From Nitrosopumilus sp. (GTDB lineage: Archaea; Thermoproteota; Nitrososphaeria; Nitrososphaerales; Nitrosopumilaceae), in assembly GCA_965218695.1 (NCBI GenBank), contig OZ244651.1:1600001-1664000 (forward strand): a DNA stretch of 64,000 bases, given 5' to 3'. Every line of letters begins with the position of its first letter. Positions within the stretch are counted from its first letter, which is position 1. A program made the translations under genes and the position numbers. The notes below the pieces were generated by a model. The model was not told the origin of the DNA, searched no databases, and worked only from the letters and a program-made list of their open reading frames with translations. Below, one piece after another: positions 20,103 through 63,174 of this stretch.

Positions 20103-21277
20103 AGAGACATAATCCGTAATTGGGCATAACCACGCGATTGGACGCATTGCAGGACAAATCCGGTTGACTGCATGGAATTGCATGTCAATTCGAACTTACC
20201 CAATGATCAAAACTATACGTCAGTCGTGTTTTATTCTGATTGCCCATATCAAAGCATGTCATTATACGACAGATTGGCAAAAAAGCCCAAACTGTTCATC
20301 CGGTGCACTGGACTGACAGTCTCCGAATTTAATTTGGTGGCAGGACGGCTGGCAAAAAAATACCCCAAGGCAGAGCAAAAGCGACTCTCCAAAAGAAGCA
20401 GGGTGCGCGGCATTGGTGCCGGACGCAGGTGGAAACTGGATCTGAAAAACAGGTTTCTTCTGGTCCTGTTTTATTACAGGACATACGCCACGCAGGATCT
20501 TCTTGCCATGGTGTTTCAGGTGGGCCAGGCCAGCGTGTCCCGCAGCATGGGGGCACTGGAGCCGTCGATCCGGCAGTGCGTTCCGCTTCCGTCAAAGATA
20601 TACTCTGACATCAAGGCCACCAAGACGCTTGACGATCTTGAGGAGATCATTCCGGGCCTGACTGCCCTGATTGATGCCTCCGAGCAGCAGATACAACGTC
20701 CCGGGCGCAAGGACATGGAACGGTTCCACTACTCGGGAAAGGCACACAGGTACACGTCCAAGGTCCAGTACACATCGGCCACGGACGGCCTCATCCTTCA
20801 CAAGACCCGGCATTCCCCGGGCAGGATCCACGACTTTGCAGTATTCAAAAAGAAACACCCGGCATTCCCTGACAACCTTACACGCAAGGACGGGAGCAGG
20901 GACAAGAAAAGGACCAAAGTAAGGGAGCTTCTGGACAGCGGATACCAGGGGATCAACAAGGAGTTTCCTGACCGGGATGCCGTAGTGCCGTACAAGAAGC
21001 AAAAAGGCGTAGAATTGTCCCCCGAGCAGAAGGAATTCAACAAAAAACACTCAAAGGTACGGGTGTATGTGGAACACGCCATCCGCAGGGTCAAACGGTT
21101 TCGCATAATGGGCAGTGTCTGCCGAAACCGCCTGAAAAAATATGACACCGTCAATGACATCGTCTGTGGATTTGCCAACCTCAGAGTTCTCCTAGTCCGG
21201 GAAGCGGCCGGATAGGAGTCAAAAACCTACACAATATAGGAAAATATGCACAATTTCTAATTACGGATTATGTCTCT
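20103..21277 (+). mobile_element. IS5-family (DDE_Tnp_4-type) element, intact transposase 20256-21215
   Basis: 19-bp IR AGAGACATAATCCGTAATT; IDASE, YSGK, DSGYQG, RVYVEHAI. Confidence 0.9.
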
Positions 21278-21510: not shown

Positions 21511-21822
21511 AACATCACTCACTGCAACTAGGCGTAATTATGCATCTATGTAACCCATCCCCGGACTTATCCAGGTTTTGCGTCCAGCTTGTCATTTTGG
21601 GTGTGTTTTTTGTCTTCTTAAGCGTTACCTGCATGCAGAATCCTGCCAGATCCGCAGAAAACGTGGCTTGTTGCCCCGCGGAGTGACATGCATAATCCCT
21701 TCCGGGGGGTCTGGGGGGCTGGCCCCCCAGCATTCATGTAGAAACATCCCACAATTCCCACAATTCGTACACAGCATCCGCTAGGGCCGGCACTGCATTT
21801 ACTGACACCACCGGTTCCGCGT

Positions 21823-22772
21823 CTACGCCTCCTTCATGACTTGTCTGATCTTGGCGCGGTACAGCTTTTCGTTTCTGTCCTCGTACAGGTTGTCTTCTGT
21901 CAACATGTGCCAGATGATCGTCAGCATCTTGTTTGCGACGTGCGTTATGGCGATGTTGTGCCTGTGCCTCTTCATGAGGCGCTCGTAGTATGCCTTCATC
22001 CTCGGGTCGTGCCTCACTGCCACCAGCGCGCACTGGACCATGACCCAGTTGACCCTGCCAGTAGTGCTGCAGAAAACGCGTCCATCCCGGTAATGCTCAT
22101 CAGTATCTTCGGGCTGTGGGCGTCGCGGACGTAGCGCCTGATCTCGTTTTCGGTCTTTTTTATCTCGTCGTTGTAGTGCCGTATCTTGGCTATGCAGCGG
22201 TCCAGGACGAACCTGTCATGGGGACTCTCCACGTCGGCTTCTTCAAGGTACGCCAGGACCCTTTTGGTCCAGACGTTTTTCCCGCCGTCCTTCGGGTTCA
22301 CGTCATACTTGTCAGTCAGCGTGTGCACGAAGTTTATCGCCCTGGTCCTGTCCTGCACCAGGCGGATCTGGTACCTGAGGATCTGTTTTATCCCCCTGGA
22401 TTCGGCCGAACCCAGGTGGCAGGCGGGAATCAGGTTGGATCTTAGCAGGTGGGCAAGCGTTCTTGCGTCGATGGTGTCGTTTTTTATGCTGGCAGACGCG
22501 ATTGCCTTGATCTTGAACGGGTTTGCAAGGGCGATGGGGATTCCCACGCGTTCAAAGGCATCGATGGTCTTTATCCAGTGGTTCCCGGTGGACTCGCAGA
22601 CTGCCCTGCATCCACCGTGTCTGGCCCTTGCGGACGTGGCAAACTCTAGCGCGTCCTTGGCCGTGTTGGCATACGATGACTCTTCGAGGATCTCCCCGTC
22701 GTGCGTCATTACGCATGTCACGCATTTTCTCTTTCCTATGTCGATTCCAATACTCTTTTCTATTTCTCTCAC
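21823..22772 (-). pseudogene. IS110 transposase with an internal deletion and frameshift
   Basis: GIDIG, CEST, KNDTIDA present; the GLxP..SG segment is absent; C-terminus (WVMVQCA...ANKML.IIW.ML) is in another frame. Confidence 0.88.
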
Positions 22773-22779
22773 CTCCTTT

Positions 22780-22935
22780 CCGTGTGTGACAGGCTGGAAG
22801 CTGCATGCATCTATCAGGACTCGAAGTCCAGTAACCCAGCAGCTCGGATAGCCCCATTCAACAGGAAGGCCTTGACGACCATGCATAATTAGGGGTCAGC
22901 CCGTCACACACGGTGAGTGGGTCGGGTTATCATGT
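22780..22935 (-). ncRNA. candidate IS110 bridge/seek RNA
   Basis: 17-bp closing stem (22780-22796 / 22897-22913) enclosing segments that match the element's donor and target junction arms. Confidence 0.75.
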
Positions 22936-23342
22936 ATTCAACAGGCTATACTCGCCCGCACGTGAAAAAGGAGGCATCCGCAAGCACGTCGGATCCGTTT
23001 TTCTGGCATGTCGCGTCGGCCACGCCCCGGCAGGCGTTTGACACGCTGTGAATTTTAATGGAATGCAAAAAACGAGTGCATGCCATGCCGGGGCCGCGCG
23101 TTCCGCGGGCCGGCATTCGCGCGTGCCTTGCATGCTGCCAAGGCAAACCAGTTTATAGTCAGAGCCGCCCAACCGAGACATCATGGCCGCCTGTAACCCC
23201 TTCCGATTCGATGCTTTCCGGGCCCTGGCCCGCTTTGAGGCAGCCTATGGGTAGCTTGCAGCGTCCTGACGGTTGCGGCCGCGGCGGCGTCCTGCGTGGG
23301 GATCCCGCCCCCTCCCCGCGGCGCGAAGGCGGGGGAAGCGTC

Positions 23343-52616: not shown

Positions 52617-54161
52617 GTATGAATTCACCTGTCCTTCCTGTCACAAAAAAATGATCATACTGATCCATATGCTGGCAATACACATCACTTTACATGGTAA
52701 ATTCACGGCACATGAGCAGGGACCAGCTAAAAGAGGAACTCCTAGCACGGAACCGGGAGATTGCCACCCTCAAATCCGATCTTGAGAAGGCACTTGGCAG
52801 GATAGAACGTCTTGAAAGGGCCTTGGGGTACAGCGAACGCCTCATGACATACTATACAAACCCCAACACGCCGCCCTCATCTGAATCCCTGGAATGGAAG
52901 GCCCAGAAGAGGGAGCGGGCAAAAAAACAGGAAAAGGAGGGCAAATCCAAGCGCGGGGGAAGAAAGGGACACGCGGGGGCGTCGCGCCCCCACGACCCGG
53001 AAAGGACCGTATCCCACAGGTTCGGGCGCAGGAAGTCGGGCAGGAGGCGGGTGCCGGTGCTCCCGGAATGCGGGTGCGGCGGCGGCGGCGGCCGGATGGC
53101 GATTGGCAGTCCGCGCGTGCGGGACATCACGGACATCAGGGTGACTGCGTGCGAGACGCGGCACCGCGTGGAGACTGCAGTATGCGGCTCATGCGGCCGC
53201 AGGGAAGATGCTCCAAACGACCTGCCGCGGCGGGGCAACTTCGGCAAGGGCATGGTCGGACTCGTCTCAGAACTGCGCGCGGCACGGGTGCCGCTCAAGG
53301 GAATCTCGGTCGCGGTGCGCTCCATAACGGGCATTATGCTTGCAGGATCCACCGTCAACAACATCATGGCACGCGTCGGGGACGCCTCGGGCCACGAGGC
53401 AGGCAGGATCCTCGGGGAAGTGGAGGCTTCTGACTGTGCCGGGTTTGACGAAACCAGCTGGCGAAACGACGGCCAGAAGGTACACGCAAACGTGGCACAG
53501 TCGGGCAAAAACATCGCAATAAACATCAGCCAGAGCAGGGCCACGCTCATGCTCGATGCCATGGACAAATTTGACGGGGTGGCGATAACTGACGGGTACA
53601 ACGGATATGACAGGTTTGACAAGGACGGCATGCACCAGTCGTGCTGGGCGCACGACCTCCGGCAGACAAGGCACCTGGCAGAAAAATACTGCGCCGTGCC
53701 TCCCGAGACCAAACGTGTCCGGCGGCGGCAGCAGCAGCTCCACGAGGACCACAAGTGGGTGTTTGAGAGGGCAAAACTGCTGGCCGCGCAGGAGGCGCGC
53801 TCGCCACAGCTGCGGCATACGATGAACCGCACCATGCAGGACGTGCTTGACCGGTACCGCGATGCCGGTGGTGGTGGTGACGATGACGACATGCAAAAGG
53901 TGCTGGACAAGCTCGAGAGGCACCTGCACCGCATGTTTGCGTTCCTGGAGCATCCCGGCGTCGAGCCTACAAACAACGCCAGCGAGAGGGCGCTGCGCTA
54001 CCTGGTGGTGTTCCGCAAGATAAGCGGGCAGACCAAGGGCGGCTCCAAGGCCATGAAGCGCCTTGCAGATTTTGTCACGTGCGTCCTCACGTGGAGGGCA
54101 CATGGCAAGAGCGTGGCCGAAGAAGTTGGTCGACTGATATAAGGGGCAGGTGAATTCATAC
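52617..54161 (+). mobile_element. IS66-family element, intact (transposase about 52712-54142)
   Basis: IR GTATGAATTCACCTG, 8-bp TSD TGGGAGCG; FDET, TDGY, HQSCWAH, TNNASER. Confidence 0.95.
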
Positions 54162-54850
54162 TGGGAGCGTTCGTCAAGGCTTATCTCGAATGGGTTCCCC
54201 GCATGAGACCAGTTCGCCAGCATAAGCCGCCGCCGGAATGGCACGGGACGGTTTTGCAGGCACGGTGGAACCTAAAAATGCCTTGTTATTCCGATGGACC
54301 CCTTTAGACCCGCTTCCACTGTGGGTTCGGGTCCTTTTTGGCTCCCCGATGTAGGGATGCCGGAGGATCCGTCCACTCTTGTCAGTCCGCGTTTCTCTCC
54401 GGCACGACCTTGCCGCTTGGCAGGTTGCCCACGAACCGGCATTCCGATCCTGTCAGGGTCTCTGCGCGCGCGTCGTCTGCCACGACCTGGCTGCCTAACC
54501 TGTCTTGCCGGCGCTTTTAGCGCCTCTAGCACGCAGCCAAGCTGCTCCGGTGTTGTGTTCTCGATGATCTGCTGGCACCGGTTCCTGCAGGAGAGTATGA
54601 TTTTGGCCGTCAAGGAATGTTTTGGGCAGATATTGTCGTGACGGTCACGCCGCATCAAGCATCTTGCCACGATTCGGTTGCCCAACGTTCAAGATTCAAA
54701 GCCGTTGTGGCATGTAATGGTTGCAACCACGAGGGATCCGGCCGCCGGAACCGGAAAAGGTCACGGGGGGGGGAACAAAATGAATGACTGGCTACGTTGG
54801 AATTAGCCAGACATTCACACATGAAAAAAGAGGGAGAGGTATTGTAGGGG

Positions 54851-54985
54851 CCCCTCCCAGAGGCCTTTTGCCGTCGTTTTTCGTGAAATACGTAAGGAAT
54901 CTGCGTCCATGGGACTAGAATTCTTTTAGACTCGGCCTACGGTAACTTGGCAGCTTGGATAGCTCCATTCACCAGAGGCCTTTGC
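54851..54985 (-). ncRNA. stand-alone ncRNA, HgcC-like, homologous to the IS110 non-coding end
   Basis: GGCCTCTGGT...GCTGCCAAGTTACCGTAGGCCGAGTCT...AAAAGGCCTCTGGGAGGG recalled as HgcC-like (unverified); oligo-T tract downstream; 43/56 match to 22818-22873. Confidence 0.6.
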
Positions 54986-55204
54986 AGTCATTCGTAATCA
55001 GGTGTTAGTCTATCACATCACCTTGTTCCATGCTTATCCGTGTTTTTTGAGTATTTAGCAAACGCGTATACACTGCAAGACAGTGCACGCGTATCAATCC
55101 TGTACAATTCCATACTTTTCTGATCGTGATCTCAGACACAGCTACTTGCCTAGTGTGCAGCACACGCATTAGAATAATTAATATTCTACTCATCCACATC
55201 TACG

Positions 55205-55798
55205 ATGACGGATGATTTGATATCTTCAAAAAAACAGCCCCGCGTCTTGCGAAAAAATGCAACCCAGAGCATAACATATCGTCTTCCCCAAAAATTAGTG
55301 GAAGAGCTGGAAGCCGAAGCCACACAAAAGGGCATCTCCCAAAATGTTTTGGTGCGACAAATTCTTGCCAAGTATGTCCGTTGGGACAGGTTCGCAGGCA
55401 GGATGGATATGGTTCCGGTGCCCAAGGTAGTCATGGATTTGTTATGTGAGAAATTGGATAATCGCGATATCGATAAAATGGTCAGCGACGTATTTCCAGT
55501 GATCATGAGCTCTGTCATGTTTATTAAAGGCGGGTATGATCTCAAGAGATGCATCGAGACCCTTGAAGACTATATGAAATCGTCTGGGGTAAAATCTGAT
55601 CATCGGGTAGAGGGTAATGTTCATTCGTTTATCATCCAGCACGAGTTGGGAATACACTGGTCTGTATTTACAGAACGGGTTTTGACCCAAATGTTTCGCA
55701 GTTTTCTACCCGAGAAAGACCTCAAATTCCAGACCACCGAATCGACTCTAATCCTATCCGTATCATTGGGCGCGGATTTTGACGAGCATGAGTATTAA
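55205..55798 (+). CDS. conserved thaumarchaeal protein with ribbon-helix-helix-like N-terminus
   Basis: SITYRLP..LVEELE.EA..KGISQN.LV.QIL.KY..WDRF. Confidence 0.8.
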   Translation: MTDDLISSKKQPRVLRKNATQSITYRLPQKLVEELEAEATQKGISQNVLVRQILAKYVRWDRFAGRMDMVPVPKVVMDLLCEKLDNRDIDKMVSDVFPVIMSSVMFIKGGYDLKRCIETLEDYMKSSGVKSDHRVEGNVHSFIIQHELGIHWSVFTERVLTQMFRSFLPEKDLKFQTTESTLILSVSLGADFDEHEY

Positions 55799-56154: not shown

Positions 56155-59100
56155 TCAGTCAGTCACGTTGATTGTCACGTTCTGCGTGGTGGTAACGCTG
56201 TTTCCATATATGTCGCTTACAGTCCAGGTTAGCACCGTGGTGCCCTCATGGAATCCGGTCAGGACGTCACCGGTGCTTAAACGGTTAGAATCTACTCTTT
56301 CAGGAATGCGTACCGGAACTCCGTCCAGGGTGCCGGTGTACGTGAATGTGAGCGACTTGCCGTCGGCTACAGAGAAGTCAAAGGCAGTGGGTGCTCCAAA
56401 GTCGCCGATATAGTACAGTCCGTCGGCGATGCGTGGCAGCGTTATGTTAAATGCAGGAGCTGGTGCGGTGATTACGGGCGGTGCGCGGTCAAAGACCAGG
56501 ATGAGTCTAGTGAGAGTGTCGGTGTTGCCCTCATCGTCGGTACAGGAGTATGATACCTGTGTCAGTCCCGCCTTGCTCGTGTCCAGCTGGCTAGTATCAA
56601 CAGTGACGCTTGAAGTTATGTCGATCTCTACGGGGAATTGACTGCCAACAGGCACCTTTCGGTCATGGCACGTTGCGCCCTTGTCCACGTAGACGCCTCC
56701 AAGCTCAACGTACGGATCCCCTTTTGAGGGGTCCGGCTGGTCGGGGGTATCATTGAAGTTGTGAGATCCTATCATTCGGACTATCGGGGAATAGTCCTGT
56801 GGTTTGAACTCTTGATCCGAAGTCGGGCTTACTGTATAAACGGAGTCGGTTTCAGGAACATTGTCAGTAAGCAGGTTGTTGGCCTTGTCCCGGATATCAT
56901 GTCCTGATGACTTTAAGTCAAGATCAAAGGTGCCGCCGGTGCCTGCATCGACGGTGACATCATACATGGCACCAGAGCCGAATGCGGGAGTAACGCTTGA
57001 GACAGAGCCCGTCCCCGTGCCTGACAGCTCAAAGTCACTACTGTCTACGCCGGTCACATCCTCGCTGAAGGTGACGCGGAACACTATGGAATCTGCGATG
57101 AAACTCTCGCCTAGGAAGGTCTGTCCTGCGATCGAGGTCAGGGCAGGCGGGATGGAATCGTCGTCGATGAATATCGTGACGGTGTCCTGGTCCCTTCCGC
57201 CGTCATTGTCAGTAACCGTAAGGGTGAACACGACTTCCTGGTCTGACGTGACCTGCGGGGAGGTAAACGTCGGAGACGACGTGTCATTAGCGTTGAGCGT
57301 CACGGACGGGCCGCTGGTGTGTTCCCACAGGTATGCCAGGATGGTACCGTCATTATCAAAGGAGCCGGTGCCGTCTAGAATGACAGGGACAAGCTCGCTT
57401 ACCGTCTGGTCCTGGCCTGCATCGGCAGTAGGCGGTTGGTTGGGGTCGGTGACCGATATGGAAAGGTCTGCGGCAGTCTCGACGGGGTTGTCGGCAGTAT
57501 CAAAGACTGCGCCCGCCTCGATGTCAAGCTGCTGGATGTCCAGTATGTTGACTGCGATCCTCTGGGCGTCTACAAGTTTTACCGTAAGGGTGCTGCCGGA
57601 GACTGACTGGGAGGAGGCACCGCTCAGGGTGACGCCGTCTGAGGACTGACCCTGTTCCCGGATGTGCAGCTTTTCAAGATCAACAGCATCCGAGATCGGC
57701 TCGCTGAAGGCCACGTTGAGGATGCCGGTGATGGTGTGGTACGCGGCGTGATCAAAGACTGGCAGAATCGTGTCGTTGACGGTGATTGACTGGTCTTCGG
57801 CAGCCGCAATCGGGTTGCCGGCAGCGTCAAAGACTGCGCCCGCCTCGATGTCAAGCTGCGGTGTTGCAATGTCGTTGACTGCGATCCTCTGGGCGTCTAC
57901 AAGGATTACCGTAAGGGTGCTGCCGGAGACTGACTGGGAGGATGAGGCGTCGCTCAGGGTGACGCCGTCCGAGGACTGGCCCTGTTCCCGGACGTGCAGC
58001 TTTGAGAGATCAACAGTATCCGAGACCGGCTCGCTGAAGGCCACGTTGAGGATGCCTTCCCCGGTGCTGTATGCAGCAGAGCTAAAGACCAGCGCTGTCC
58101 CGTCGGTAACCGATATGAGCCTGTCTGTGGTGGCTGCAATCGGGTTGCCGGAGGTGTCGGAGATGGCACCAGTATCAACGTCAAGCTGGGGGGTGCCCAT
58201 GACGTTGACGGTGTCCCTTTGTGCGGTGGAAAGCGTCACGGCAAGGGTGTTGCCGGAGGCCGACTGCAGGAAGGCGCCAGTCATGTTGACACCGCCCGAG
58301 GACTGGCCCGGTTCCCGAACGTGCAGCTTTGAGAGGTCGGCATCGTCTGTGACCGGCTCGCTGAGGGTCATGTTGAGGATGCCGGTAAGGGTATGATATG
58401 TGACAGAACCGAGGACTGGCGGAATCGTGTCGTTGACGGTGATCGGCAGGTCTTCAGCAGCCGCAATCAGGTTGCCGGAGGTGTCAGAGACGGCGCCTGC
58501 ACCAACGTCAATCTGGGGGGCCGTCATTGCGTTGACGGCGTTCTTTTGTACTGTAGGAAGAGTTACGGTAAGGGTGCTGCCTGTGATGGACAGTGATGTA
58601 ACGCCTGCCAGGGTGGTGCCGCCTGAGGACTGACCCTGTTCCCGGACGTGCAGCTTTGAGAGGTCGACGGTAGTGGAGATCGGCTCGCTGAAGGTCACGC
58701 GGAGGACGCCAGATATGGTGCTGTATGCCGAAGAGCTTAGGGTGGGTGCTGTCCCGTCGGTAACTGATATGGGCAGGTCTTCGGCGGCCACAATGGGATT
58801 GTCGGAGGTGTCGGATACGGCACCCGCGTCAACGTCAATCTGGGGCGTGCCCATGGCGTTGACGGTGTTCTTCTGGGACGTGGAAAGCTCGACTGCGAGG
58901 GTGCTGTCAGAGACTGACTGGGAGGATGCGCCGGTCATGTTGACACCGCCTGTGGACTGGCCCTGTTCTCGAATGTGAATCTTTGAGGGGTCGACGGTGG
59001 TGGAGATCGGCTCGCTGAAGGTCACGTTGAGACTGCCGGTAAGGGTGTGGTATGCGGCATAATCAAAGACAGGAGGAATCGTGTAGTAGACGGTAATGGG

Positions 59101-62100
59101 ACGGTCTGCAGCAGCAGTAATCCTGCTGCTATAAATGTCAGAGATGGCGCCCGCGTCGATGTCAAGCTGCGGGGTCGTCATGGCGTTGACTGCGTCCTTT
59201 TGTGAGGTGGAAAGCGTTACGGTGAGGGTGCTGCCGGAGACTGACAGGAAGGTAACTCCGGTCATGGTGACTCCGCCCGAGAACCGGCCTTGGTCTCGGA
59301 CGTGCAGCTTTGAGAGGTCGGCGGTAGCGGAGATTGGTTCGTTGAAGGTCACGTTGAGGATGCCTGTTCCGGTGCTGTATGTCGCAGAGACGAGGTTGGG
59401 CGCTGCCCCGTCGGTGACTATTATGGGCAGGTCTGCTGTGGCGGCGATTCCGTTGCCGGCAACGTCAGAGACTGCGCCGGTCTCAACGTCAAGCTGCGGG
59501 GTGTCCAGGGCATTGGCCGTGTTCTTCTGGGGTGTGGAAAGTTCGACTGTGAGGGTGCTGTTAGAGACTGACTGGGACGAGGCGCCGGTCAGGTTAATAC
59601 CGCCTGAGAACTGCCACGACTCGCGGACGTGAATCTTTGAGGGGTCAACGGTAGTAGAGATCGGCTCGTTGAAGGTCACGTTGAGAATCCCGGTTATGAT
59701 GTTGTATGTCGCAGAGTCAAAGTCTGGCGCGATTCCGTCAATGATGTCTACGGGGTAATCTATGGTGGCTGCATTCTGGTTGCCAGATTGGCCCGTGAAA
59801 GCACCCTTATCAATGTCAATCTGCGGGGTGCTCATGCCGTCGATTGCGTTCTTTTGGTCGGTGGTAAGTCTTAGTATGTGGTTGCCCTGTCCGTCTCCGC
59901 CCCAAAGAGCGCCTTGCAGGGTAACGCCGACTGTGGGCTGGCCGGCTTCATGGACGCGTATTTTTTCCTGATAAATCTGGGGGCGGAGATGCTCACTGAA
60001 TGTAAAGATGAGCCTGCTGGTTCCTGTATTATATGCAGCAGAGGTGAGGGTTGGCCGGATTGCGTCGTCGGTAACGTCTATGTGCTGATCCATGACGAGC
60101 GCAATCATGTTGTCGGCAGTGTCAGAGACTGCGCCGGCCTCAATGTCAAGCTGCGGGGTGTCCAAGGCGTTGACCGTGTTCTTTTGGGACGTGGAAAGTT
60201 CGACTGTGAGGGTGCTGCCCGATACTGACTGGTCGGTGGCGCCGGTCAGGGTGGCGCCGGTCAGGGTGGCGCCGCCCGAGGTCTGGCCGGAGTCGCGGAC
60301 GTGCAGCTTTGAGAGGTCGGCGGTATCGGAGATCGGCTCGCTGAAGGTCACGTTGAGGATGCCTGTTCCGGTGCTGTATGCTGCGGAGCTGAATGTGGGT
60401 GCTGCCCCGTCAGTGATTAATATGGACTGGTCTGCGGCGGCGGCGATTCCGTTGGTGGCAGTGTCGGTGACGGCGCCGGCCTCAATGTCAAGCTGCGGTG
60501 TGCCCAGGGCGTTGACCGTGTTCTGTTGGGACGTGGAAAGTTCGACTGTGAGTGTGCTGCCTGAGACTGACTGAGACGAGGCGCCGGTCAGGGTGGCGCC
60601 GCCTGATGACAGGCCGGAGTCGCGGATGTGCAGCTTTGAGAGGTCGGCGGTAGCGGAGATTGGTTCGTTGAAGGTCACGTTGAGGATGCCTGTTCCGGTA
60701 TTGTATGTTGCAGAATAAAGGACTGGCAGAGTATCGTCGACTAGGGTGATGGACAGGTCTGCCATAGCTGCAATCGGATTGTTGGAGGTGTCGGAGACCG
60801 CACCTGCATCGATGTCAATCTGGTGGGTGTCCAAGGCGTTGATTGCGTCCCTATGGACAGCATCAAGGCTTATCCTAAGAAGATTGCCAAGGACGTCATG
60901 GTGGGTGGCACTGGACATGTTAACGCCACCTGAGGACTTGCCTGATTCGCGGACATGCAGCTTTGAGAGGTCCGCGGGGGTGGAGATCGACTCGCTGAAG
61001 GTCACGGCGAGGTTGCCTGTTCCGATGTTGTATGCGGCAGAAGCAAATGTTGGCAAAACCGTGTCAGTGACGACGGTTGTTTCACCGACAAGTGATATTG
61101 TTTGGTCTGCGACAGCGTCGATTTCGTTGGTGGCAGTGTCGGAGACTGCGCCGGCCTCAATGTCAAGCTGCGGTGTGCCCAGGGCGTTGACCGTGTTCTG
61201 TTGGGACGTGGAAAGTTCAACTGTGAGGGTGCTGCCTGATACTGACTGGTCGGTGGCGCCGGTCAGGGTGGCGCCGCCCGAGGTCTGGCCGGAGTCGCGG
61301 ACATGCAGCTTTGAGAGGTCCGCGGGGGTGGAGATCGACTCGCTGAAGGTCACGGCGAGGTTGCCTGTTCCGATGTTGTATGCGGCAGAAGCAAATGTTG
61401 GCAAAACCGTGTCAGTGACGACGGTTGTTTCACCGACAAGTGATATTGTTTGGTCTGCGACAGCGTCGATTTCGTTGGTGGCAGTGTCGGAGACTGCGCC
61501 GGCCTCAATGTCAAGCTGCGGTGTGCCCAGGGCGTTGACCGTGTTCTGTTGGGACGTGGAAAGTTCAACTGTGAGGGTGCTGCCTGATACTGACTGGTCG
61601 GTGGCGCCGGTCAGGGTGGCGCCGCCCGAGGTCTGGCCGGAGTCGCGGACATGCAGCTTTGAGAGGTCCGCGGGGGTGGAGATCGACTCGCTGAAGGTCA
61701 CGGCGAGGTTGCCTGTTCCGATGTTGTATGCGGCAGAAGCAAATGTTGGCAAAACCGTGTCAGTGACGACGGTTGTTTCACCGACAAGTGATATTGTTTG
61801 GTCTGCGACAGCGTCGATTTCGTTGGTGGCAGTGTCGGAGACTGCGCCGGCCTCAATGTCAAGCTGCGGTGTGCCCAGGGCGTTGACCGTGTTCTGTTGG
61901 GACGTGGAAAGTTCAACTGTGAGGGTGCTGCCTGATACTGACTGGTCGGTGGCGCCGGTCAGGGTGGCGCCGCCCGAGGTCTGGCCGGAGTCGCGGACAT
62001 GCAGCTTTGAGAGGTCCGCGGGGGTGGAGATCGACTCGCTGAAGGTCACGGCGAGGTTGCCTGTTCCGATGTTGTATGCGGCAGAAGCAAATGTTGGCAA

Positions 62101-63174
62101 AACCGTGTCAGTGACGACGGTTGTTTCACCGACAAGTGATATTGTTTGGTCTGCGACAGCGTCGATTTCGTTGGTGGCAGTGTCGGAGACTGCGCCGGCC
62201 TCAATGTCAAGCTGGGTAGTCGTCATGGAGTTGACTGTATTCTGCTGGGCAGCAGAAAGTCTCACCGTAAGGGTGCCGACTGAGACCGGCTGGGGGATGG
62301 CGTTGGTCAGGGTGACGCCGCCTGATGACAGGCCGGACTCGCGGATGTGCAGCTTTGAGAGTTTGGTGTCAGCACCGTAGATTGGCTCGCCGAATGTAAT
62401 TCTGAGTATCCCGGTTTCGGTGTCGTATGTTGCAGAATCAAAGGTCGGCAGGGTTGTGTCATTAATAGTGATAGGCCGGTCTGCGATACCCACGATTCTG
62501 TTGTTACCGGCGTCCAAGACGGCGCCTGCTCTGATGTCAAGCTGTGGGGTCGTCATGGCGTTGACATCATTCTTTTTGGAGTCTGGAAGGAGCAGTTTGA
62601 TGGTGCTGCCGTAGACGGATTGGCTGGAATCTGTCAGGTCAACGCCGCCTGTGGACTGGCCGGACTCGCGGATGTGCAGCTTTGAGAGATCGGTTGTACT
62701 GGAGAGAGGCTCGTTGAGTGTCAGGCTGAGGGTTCCATCAGAGGTAACGTATGCGGCAGAATCAAAGGTTGGCTTGATTGTGTCATTAATAGTGATAGGC
62801 CGGTCTGTGACAGCCACGATTTTGTTGTTACCGGCGTCCGAGACGGCGTCTGCGTCGATGTCAATCTGCGGGGTGATCATGAAGTCAACGTCACTCTGTT
62901 GGGAGACAGAAAGGTTGACTGTGAGGGTGCTGCCGTCGACGGATGTGGAGGTGGCACCCGTCAGGGTGACGCCGCCTGATGACAGGCCGGACTCGCGGAC
63001 GTGCAGCTTTGAGAGGTTAACCGTAGTATCGGAGATTGGCTCGCTGAACGTCATGTCGAGAGCCCCGGTTTCGGGGGTGTATGTGGCAGAGTCGAAGGTG
63101 GGTGGCGTTCCCGAGGACTGTTTAACCAGGATGCTAGGAGAGATGGAGGGCGTCACTTTGGAAAAGAGGCCCAT
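56155..63174 (-). CDS. giant repeat surface protein (about 17 copies of a ~110-aa domain, plus PKD-like and HYR/DUF5011-like domains); N-terminus probably lost
   Basis: Repeats PTF.SA.Y...TG.L..TFSE......LSKLH.R..G...GG..L; NQPP.ADAG.DQ; no signal peptide and frame stays open up to the IS66 remnant. Confidence 0.88.
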   Translation of the reverse strand: MGLFSKVTPSISPSILVKQSSGTPPTFDSATYTPETGALDMTFSEPISDTTVNLSKLHVRESGLSSGGVTLTGATSTSVDGSTLTVNLSVSQQSDVDFMITPQIDIDADAVSDAGNNKIVAVTDRPITINDTIKPTFDSAAYVTSDGTLSLTLNEPLSSTTDLSKLHIRESGQSTGGVDLTDSSQSVYGSTIKLLLPDSKKNDVNAMTTPQLDIRAGAVLDAGNNRIVGIADRPITINDTTLPTFDSATYDTETGILRITFGEPIYGADTKLSKLHIRESGLSSGGVTLTNAIPQPVSVGTLTVRLSAAQQNTVNSMTTTQLDIEAGAVSDTATNEIDAVADQTISLVGETTVVTDTVLPTFASAAYNIGTGNLAVTFSESISTPADLSKLHVRDSGQTSGGATLTGATDQSVSGSTLTVELSTSQQNTVNALGTPQLDIEAGAVSDTATNEIDAVADQTISLVGETTVVTDTVLPTFASAAYNIGTGNLAVTFSESISTPADLSKLHVRDSGQTSGGATLTGATDQSVSGSTLTVELSTSQQNTVNALGTPQLDIEAGAVSDTATNEIDAVADQTISLVGETTVVTDTVLPTFASAAYNIGTGNLAVTFSESISTPADLSKLHVRDSGQTSGGATLTGATDQSVSGSTLTVELSTSQQNTVNALGTPQLDIEAGAVSDTATNEIDAVADQTISLVGETTVVTDTVLPTFASAAYNIGTGNLAVTFSESISTPADLSKLHVRESGKSSGGVNMSSATHHDVLGNLLRISLDAVHRDAINALDTHQIDIDAGAVSDTSNNPIAAMADLSITLVDDTLPVLYSATYNTGTGILNVTFNEPISATADLSKLHIRDSGLSSGGATLTGASSQSVSGSTLTVELSTSQQNTVNALGTPQLDIEAGAVTDTATNGIAAAADQSILITDGAAPTFSSAAYSTGTGILNVTFSEPISDTADLSKLHVRDSGQTSGGATLTGATLTGATDQSVSGSTLTVELSTSQKNTVNALDTPQLDIEAGAVSDTADNMIALVMDQHIDVTDDAIRPTLTSAAYNTGTSRLIFTFSEHLRPQIYQEKIRVHEAGQPTVGVTLQGALWGGDGQGNHILRLTTDQKNAIDGMSTPQIDIDKGAFTGQSGNQNAATIDYPVDIIDGIAPDFDSATYNIITGILNVTFNEPISTTVDPSKIHVRESWQFSGGINLTGASSQSVSNSTLTVELSTPQKNTANALDTPQLDVETGAVSDVAGNGIAATADLPIIVTDGAAPNLVSATYSTGTGILNVTFNEPISATADLSKLHVRDQGRFSGGVTMTGVTFLSVSGSTLTVTLSTSQKDAVNAMTTPQLDIDAGAISDIYSSRITAAADRPITVYYTIPPVFDYAAYHTLTGSLNVTFSEPISTTVDPSKIHIREQGQSTGGVNMTGASSQSVSDSTLAVELSTSQKNTVNAMGTPQIDVDAGAVSDTSDNPIVAAEDLPISVTDGTAPTLSSSAYSTISGVLRVTFSEPISTTVDLSKLHVREQGQSSGGTTLAGVTSLSITGSTLTVTLPTVQKNAVNAMTAPQIDVGAGAVSDTSGNLIAAAEDLPITVNDTIPPVLGSVTYHTLTGILNMTLSEPVTDDADLSKLHVREPGQSSGGVNMTGAFLQSASGNTLAVTLSTAQRDTVNVMGTPQLDVDTGAISDTSGNPIAATTDRLISVTDGTALVFSSAAYSTGEGILNVAFSEPVSDTVDLSKLHVREQGQSSDGVTLSDASSSQSVSGSTLTVILVDAQRIAVNDIATPQLDIEAGAVFDAAGNPIAAAEDQSITVNDTILPVFDHAAYHTITGILNVAFSEPISDAVDLEKLHIREQGQSSDGVTLSGASSQSVSGSTLTVKLVDAQRIAVNILDIQQLDIEAGAVFDTADNPVETAADLSISVTDPNQPPTADAGQDQTVSELVPVILDGTGSFDNDGTILAYLWEHTSGPSVTLNANDTSSPTFTSPQVTSDQEVVFTLTVTDNDGGRDQDTVTIFIDDDSIPPALTSIAGQTFLGESFIADSIVFRVTFSEDVTGVDSSDFELSGTGTGSVSSVTPAFGSGAMYDVTVDAGTGGTFDLDLKSSGHDIRDKANNLLTDNVPETDSVYTVSPTSDQEFKPQDYSPIVRMIGSHNFNDTPDQPDPSKGDPYVELGGVYVDKGATCHDRKVPVGSQFPVEIDITSSVTVDTSQLDTSKAGLTQVSYSCTDDEGNTDTLTRLILVFDRAPPVITAPAPAFNITLPRIADGLYYIGDFGAPTAFDFSVADGKSLTFTYTGTLDGVPVRIPERVDSNRLSTGDVLTGFHEGTTVLTWTVSDIYGNSVTTTQNVTINVTD
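60947..62214. repeat. 348-bp apparently identical intragenic tandem repeat, about 3.6 copies
   Basis: Identical off-frame ORFs at 61002, 61350 and 61698; 116-aa unit. Confidence 0.93.

Follow-up and report, generated by a model that had tools for sequence, protein, structure and literature searches.

The covariation logic of IS110 bridge RNAs (IS621 type) is known from Durrant et al. 2024 (PMC11208160, as far as the available part of that article goes). A second point of reference is ISPpu9, an IS110-family element of Pseudomonas putida; the available part of the report describes orphan ssr9 modules that are moved separately by an IS110-family enzyme (PMC12288879). The HgcC tetraloop has been tied to the right ends of IS1341/TnpB elements (PMC4615843, in the part available), an association that points away from IS110. 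Finally, a preprint derives Nop5 from IS110-like recombinases (10.1101/2024.06.21.599552), so that the IS110-Nop5 relation invoked in an initial annotation of the DNA studied here is on record as a proposal; the portion of that preprint at hand makes no mention of "orphan", "standalone" or "HgcC". In the parts of the IS110, HgcC and Nop5 literature that were accessible, no description of an archaeal orphan bridge RNA was found, and supplements may list orphan bridge RNAs.

In this study, we compared with these systems a locus of Nitrosopumilus sp., the region 54851-54985 of a 64-kb window of contig OZ244651.1. All coordinates refer to this window unless preceded by C1, the contig of the 2.63-Mb window genome (G000), and the RNA sense of the locus is the minus strand. 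A sister genome, G002, and two further genomes of the family comparison, G018 and G400, recur below. The initial annotation had read the locus as a possible domesticated, HgcC-like bridge RNA. We consider it probable that it is instead what is left of an IS110 left end, decaying and transposase-less, which became joined to a host promoter, underwent one duplication in G000 and occupies a non-syntenic position in G002.

The window carries an IS110-family element of its own at 21536-22949 (minus strand; genome BLAST; Pfam DEDD_Tnp_IS110, E = 8e-24). This copy is broken: relative to the full copies used for comparison (C1:776513-778055, 239024-240693, and 241655-243197), 130 bp are missing from inside its transposase gene, at the junction of 22054 and 22055, and tblastn splits the transposase match into residues 1-281 and 300-400. 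Intact IS110 recombinase genes are present in G000, for example one of 400 aa at C1:776803-778002. A DDE_Tnp_4 transposase gene lies at 20172-21215 in the same window. The bridge-RNA region of the window copy extends from the left-end tip to the transposase start (22776-22949, minus strand). Left ends were gathered from G000 and 12 other genomes of the genus, and 25 of the 34 distinct ones were aligned, the nine excluded (L100, L101, L107, L110, L111, L115, L116, L025, and L030) being truncated, disrupted or near-duplicate. The RNAalifold consensus of the 25 comprises 27 pairs; compensatory changes occur at 15 of these. Its outer stem, P1, has 10 bp and strong covariation; P2 pairs CCCC with GGGG, with two compensatory cases; P4 pairs GCUGC with GCAGC; and P3 and P5 are two small hairpins. 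In these local RNAs a single closing stem encloses the two loop regions. Across the family, the left-end tip and the 5' arm of the inner loop covary, with two readable examples. In four IS110 copies a 5' outer segment is reverse-complementary to what comes right after the right end, and this segment may act as the target guide. As a by-product, this yields a clean archaeal set of IS110 left ends with loop arm-tip covariation, in which the bridge-RNA logic holds for this genus.

The resemblance of the locus to these left ends proved real but weak. When 54929-54982 was realigned globally to 22818-22873, with both in minus-strand orientation, the 43 identical columns out of 56 reported in the initial annotation were recovered. 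Against the IS110 left end the local score was 46, whereas 2000 dinucleotide shuffles averaged 15.1 (sd 2.1, max 26) and none reached it (z = 14.8). Whole-genome BLAST stretched the match to 55017-54929 versus 22908-22818, with 71% identity over 91 columns (E = 2.5e-5); the similarity is therefore real and somewhat longer than first stated. Identity to two other IS110 copies is 76%. A covariance model built from IS110 ends had been proposed as a check, and our model R1, trained on the 25 left ends, recovers the locus at 55057 to 54873 with 31.2 bits; the two copies of the locus in G000 score 31.2 and 31.4 bits (rough E of about 1e-5 over 71 kb and 4.6e-4 genome-wide). For comparison, the bridge-RNA region of the window element, itself a member of the training set, scores 175 bits. 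Genome-wide, R1 gives 25 matches in G000 at E <= 1: the 14 best left ends lie at 108-182 bits, other transposase-less fragments follow at 80.7, 56, 39.6, 35.1, and 32 bits, then come the two copies of the locus and four weaker matches. No IS110 gene is adjacent, as had been noted. When the 400-aa transposase was compared by tblastn (E <= 100) with 54000-55300, no transposase remnant was found, only chance matches and the translated RNA region itself, and the two ORFs downstream of the locus had no Pfam match.

The locus is a transposase-free homologue of the IS110 guide RNA, the aligned piece being the loop whose arms match the element ends. Its core (54929-55017, minus strand), delimited by BLAST, alignment and shuffles, retains loop arms like the left-end tip and the right end. 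The 5' arm is one base off the left-end tips of the IS110 copies at C1:192786 and 213710, and resembles the arm of an element in G002. Several differences had been placed within the donor-matching segments, correctly so; the loop's 5' segment and the left-end tip covary family-wide. Downstream of the core, covariance-model and IS110-end alignments place a degenerate 3' part (54873-54928, minus strand), which holds remnants, namely the GCAGC strand of P4 and the 3' strand of P1, with about 11 nt inserted. The locus has no element ends of its own, and the region of the target arms is degenerate. Set beside the IS621-type bridge RNA, the locus shows homology to the RNA-coding left ends of the resident IS110 elements and keeps the donor-binding loop logic, but lacks the recombinase gene, the left-end tip and the right end, drifts neutrally (see below) and, if transcribed, would depend on a host promoter.

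Other details of the initial annotation stood only in part. The data allow for the UGGR/UCCR hairpin, but it changes on only one side at a time; in the 25-sequence consensus fold its GGGG pairs with the upstream CCCC as P2. The oligo-T tract near the end exists as T5 at 54868-54872, but on the plus strand; in the RNA sense, the nearest run, T6 at 54831 to 54826, falls outside the region annotated. As read from the sequence, this U6 run (54826-54831, minus strand) follows a G+C-rich inverted repeat and is a possible transcript end; G002 also has a T-run at this position, within a poorly aligned stretch (54820-54872, 28/53 identical). The neighbouring gene had been called core-type. This applies to the right side alone, where a host gene with a ribbon-helix-helix (RHH) domain lies at 55205-55798 (plus strand; Pfam RHH_1, 21.7 bits against a cut-off of 20.5); the left neighbor, on the other hand, is an IS66-family insertion sequence (52617-54161, plus strand; Pfam DDE_Tnp_IS66, E = 4.8e-29), of which G000 contains 22 other full-length copies at 93-100% identity.

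By every measure applied, the locus groups with transposon debris. Of 63 conserved columns the window copy keeps 42 and the G002 copy 31, whereas the 25 training members keep 55-63 and three held-out full ends 58-62. Consensus pairs follow the same trend: 17 of 27 form in the G000 copy and 15 in the G002 copy, against all 27 in the three training ends checked and 25-26 in the three held-out ends. Four other transposase-less relics span 31-52 columns and 10-18 pairs. Hairpin P5 is not aligned at the locus, R1 placing a local end there, and the near-invariant CUGAUAG motif is altered in both the G000 and the G002 copies. The minimum free energy (MFE) of the G000 locus gives a z-score of -2.3, with 3 of 300 shuffles as low, so that it folds somewhat better than shuffles; two genuine IS110 RNAs reach -3.9 (22776-22949) and -3.6. 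The MFE fold of the locus does not reproduce the IS110 architecture. In G002, R1 drops to 2.3 bits, the 3' strand of the outer stem P1 is gone, and folding is no better than in shuffles (z = 0.0). Solo or truncated IS remnants are among the closest counterparts: scores and pairing of the locus are like those of the other transposase-less IS110 left-end fragments of the genome and the genus, where 6 of 30 loci with a left-end match have no transposase. It differs from them in having lost the tip, in its fusion to a host promoter, in its duplication together with flanking sequence, and in being common to two species. In G018, two truncated, transposase-less IS110 left ends flank the RHH gene (L143 1206-1333 and 2590-2746; 18.5 and 24.5 bits); they keep the left-end tip, are unrelated to the locus in position and orientation, and neither is orthologous to it.

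The 5' part of the locus has a different origin. A palindromic motif, CAYTGTCTTGCAGTG, lies at 55071-55085 within what we read as a host promoter/operator core (55043-55135, minus strand), on the basis of identity with G002 and of the occurrence of the motif at RHH loci of the genus. RHH homologues are found in 43 of 61 genomes of the genus, and at 14 of the 31 loci compared CAYTGTCTTGCAGTG occurs no more than 450 nt upstream of the homologue. In 11 of these, a TATA-like box and the ATG of a small HTH gene come next at fixed spacing, the HTH gene lying ahead of the RHH gene. This operator recurs in G000, where a TATA-like box (55051-55059) stands at the distance seen in those loci and an ATG occupies the expected HTH start (55031 to 55029), with IS110-like sequence beginning about four codons on. 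This ATG would be the start-codon remnant of a lost HTH gene; in 53900-55250 no remnant of that gene was found, only distant paralogues being present elsewhere in G000. The operator is inverted relative to the RHH gene in G000, G018, and G400. In G018, which also matches by BLAST, the HTH gene is reduced to a 15-codon ORF beside the operator, while in G400 the match consists of the palindrome and the TATA-like box before a gene, with an RHH homologue nearby. The native upstream region of the RHH gene is the source of the promoter/operator core. Judged from these motifs, the 5' part of the locus is a predicted promoter with operator of the HTH-RHH operon, and the operator and TATA-like spacing ahead of the IS110-like sequence make the locus a chimera of a host promoter and an IS110 piece. 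The stretch 55018-55057 (minus strand), which R1 weakly aligned to the left-end tip, is on the model alignment and the spacing comparison probably host sequence, and that alignment seems better explained as promoter sequence. A 64-aa ORF (55005-55199, minus strand) crosses the promoter core; it was considered and set aside, as G002 has a 2-nt deletion inside it and its start lies outside the shared unit.

The two parts of this chimera have evolved at different rates. Our comparison concerns one species pair, G000 and G002, the sole carriers found, with four-fold degenerate sites of glmM, L7Ae, ndk and the RHH gene as reference (331/405 identical, 82%). The IS110-like core 54929-55017 is identical at 70 of 89 positions (79%), and the 3' part 54873-54928 at 20 of 42 (48%), with 14 further gap columns that include the 3' strand of P1. 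Thus, within this one species pair, the IS110-like part changes at the neutral rate or faster, and such drift argues against a maintained RNA. The promoter core, in contrast, is identical at 91 of 91 positions, with one 2-nt indel, where neutral identity would give 0.817^91, or about 1e-8; it is bordered by 55018-55042 with 16/25 identical positions and by an opposite flank with 22/27. This identity persists although the G002 copy no longer adjoins the RHH gene. Some feature of the promoter core is, by this comparison, apparently constrained, and the relic is what the promoter would transcribe. Regulator binding would be the simplest reason, even though the G002 copy lies away from the RHH gene. 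A second by-product that may be useful is a conserved HTH-RHH operator/promoter with perfect identity between two species.

A constrained promoter in front of a guide-like sequence raises another explanation, that of an expressed chimeric noncoding RNA in which the host promoter drives a pseudo-bridge RNA that binds the resident IS110 recombinase, either as a decoy or sponge or by supplying, in trans, an alternative donor-binding loop for the subfamily with the TGGTGAAT left-end tip. The contrast between 91/91 and about 82% at neutral sites speaks for such a reading, G000 does contain intact recombinase genes, the guide-like arms are still readable and near the tips of two resident copies, the G000 fold retains its z of -2.3, and in the alignments, judged by eye, both sides of one P4 pair differ between G000 and G002 (C-G to U-A), a change that may be compensatory. 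The RNA part itself, however, diverges as neutral sites do; neither the 3' strand of P1 nor any excess fold stability survives in the G002 copy; 21 of the 63 conserved positions, P5 and the CUGAUAG motif are lost in G000; the unit occurs in two species only in the family search; and regulator binding alone can account for the conserved promoter. We therefore regard an expressed RNA of this kind as unlikely. Its regulated form, where an operator-controlled promoter captured the bridge-RNA fragment, which then dampens or redirects the recombinase of the TGGTGAAT-tip subfamily, appears more doubtful still, a long shot in our estimation; if true, it would be a first case in which a host uses a stolen guide to tame an RNA-guided transposon, and a new kind of host control over RNA-guided transposition.

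The distribution of the locus was examined by a family-wide DNA search of 401 genomes, the best two candidates per genome being scored. Three of them gave matches, G000, G002, and G400, and the IS110-like part is confined to G000 and G002. The G002 match covers 55162 to 54925 at 82% identity, while that of G400 amounts to 44 nt of the 5' part only. Synteny within Nitrosopumilaceae, which the initial annotation had named as a check, did not materialize, as the unit of G002 sits elsewhere, in the spacer between glmM and L7Ae, and the RHH locus of G002 is rearranged and without the unit. Two scans of metagenome contigs for the promoter-relic unit gave no match. A scan of genome contigs returned a single record, the 2.2-Mb chromosome of a Nitrosopumilus sp. 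MAG, which may be the same genome as G002. Contigs from four DNA runs, which represent close strains with partial cover, contained no new divergent variants, the differences seen being those of copy 2.

Within G000, the relic is part of a two-copy segmental repeat (54247-55182; BLAST, 95.6% over 936 columns), adjoined on the left by the IS66-family element. The second copy of this 0.93-kb repeat is located at C1:604811-605742, among IS genes. Two copies in G000 and a non-syntenic one in G002 would also be expected of a non-autonomous mobile module, that is, a transposase-less IS110 derivative moved in trans in the manner of ssr9, for which ISPpu9 offers a precedent in the available part of its description (PMC12288879). 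As far as that part goes, ssr9 and the locus are alike in being IS110-related small-RNA sequences unlinked to a transposase gene; yet ssr9 is not a bridge RNA, keeps the A'/B' boxes recognized by the transposase and moves as a module, whereas the locus has no element ends. The absence of both an IS110 left-end tip and a right end, and a 5' part made of host promoter DNA, do not fit such a module. Nor do the boundaries, which are not common to all three copies: those of G000 share 0.57 kb of extra flank absent from the G002 copy. A short multi-copy repeat marks the left boundary in G000, as fits an IS-mediated segmental duplication, and no duplicated core or target motif was seen. On account of the differing copy boundaries a MITE or mobile-module reading was rejected, and we hold it to be very improbable.

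The position of the unit upstream of L7Ae in G002 bears on the reading put forward in the initial annotation, where the locus was taken as a host-domesticated HgcC-like RNA acting with a domesticated protein of the IS110/Nop5 type. That position, and the derivation of Nop5 from IS110-like recombinases in the preprint (10.1101/2024.06.21.599552, in the part at hand), could be cited in its support. However, the position reflects an insertion specific to G002: the glmM-L7Ae spacer measures 62-69 bp at 27 of the 30 loci of the genus and 432 bp in G002; G018 has 649 bp there, unrelated in sequence. In G000 itself the spacer is about 2.1 kb (C1:1709714-1711812) and contains a 1.76-kb IS with four other copies, and no unit. 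The glmM-L7Ae spacer looks like a local insertion hot spot, widened independently in G000, G002, and G018. The likeness to HgcC was not borne out either: no Rfam family matched at gathering score in the whole window, and at E <= 10 no HgcC match was obtained in 54500-55300 or 22700-23100, where only chance-level lncRNA and miRNA matches appeared. The locus has nothing measurable in common with HgcC (RF00062), and HgcC is tied, in the available part of the source, to IS1341/TnpB ends (PMC4615843). Conservation is limited to two species, and the drift between their copies is neutral. Domestication finds no more support, since conservation and pairing are at the level of relics, the rate against the sole orthologue is neutral, part of the fold is lost in G002, and matches occur in 3 of 401 genomes. 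With no HgcC match and no conservation in relatives to speak of, what is found is essentially the decayed IS scar that the initial annotation had itself named as the alternative. An HgcC-like domesticated RNA is largely refuted, and we give it next to no credence.

Returning to the relic, which is our preferred reading, we infer the following order of events. The ancestor shared by G000 and G002 would have had its HTH gene interrupted by an IS110 of the subfamily with the TGGTGAAT left-end tip, and later deletions would have taken the rest of the element. A bridge-RNA segment is left, approximately element positions 41-170; left-end tip, right end and transposase gene are gone. The promoter-relic unit would then have been copied within G000, inside the 0.93-kb segment bounded by IS debris. 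Given the lost motifs and hairpin and the neutral drift, the relic is most likely dead as a bridge RNA; it is possibly still transcribed from the intact promoter, as a by-product. As it stands, the locus matters little, being one more IS fragment in an IS-crowded genome, and to count it among orphan or domesticated bridge RNAs, or as a link between HgcC and IS110, would be a mistake.

Some further observations concern the surroundings of the locus. The left boundary of the two-copy segment coincides with a short repeat (54243-54289), which has several matches of 85-96% in G002 and G018 and occurs on very high-depth contigs of the DNA runs; it probably represents one end of another IS or of a MITE. 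Inside the segment, an ORF of 137 aa (54272-54685, minus strand) has no Pfam match. Copy 2 departs from this frame about 65 residues in, so that the ORF there has 101 aa, and 92 nt of the ORF match at 80% close to the RHH gene of G002. Further to the right, an ORF of 2339 aa (56155-63174, minus strand) is made up of many units of about 110 residues in tandem, which are 66-85% identical to one another at the DNA level, and looks like a surface protein.
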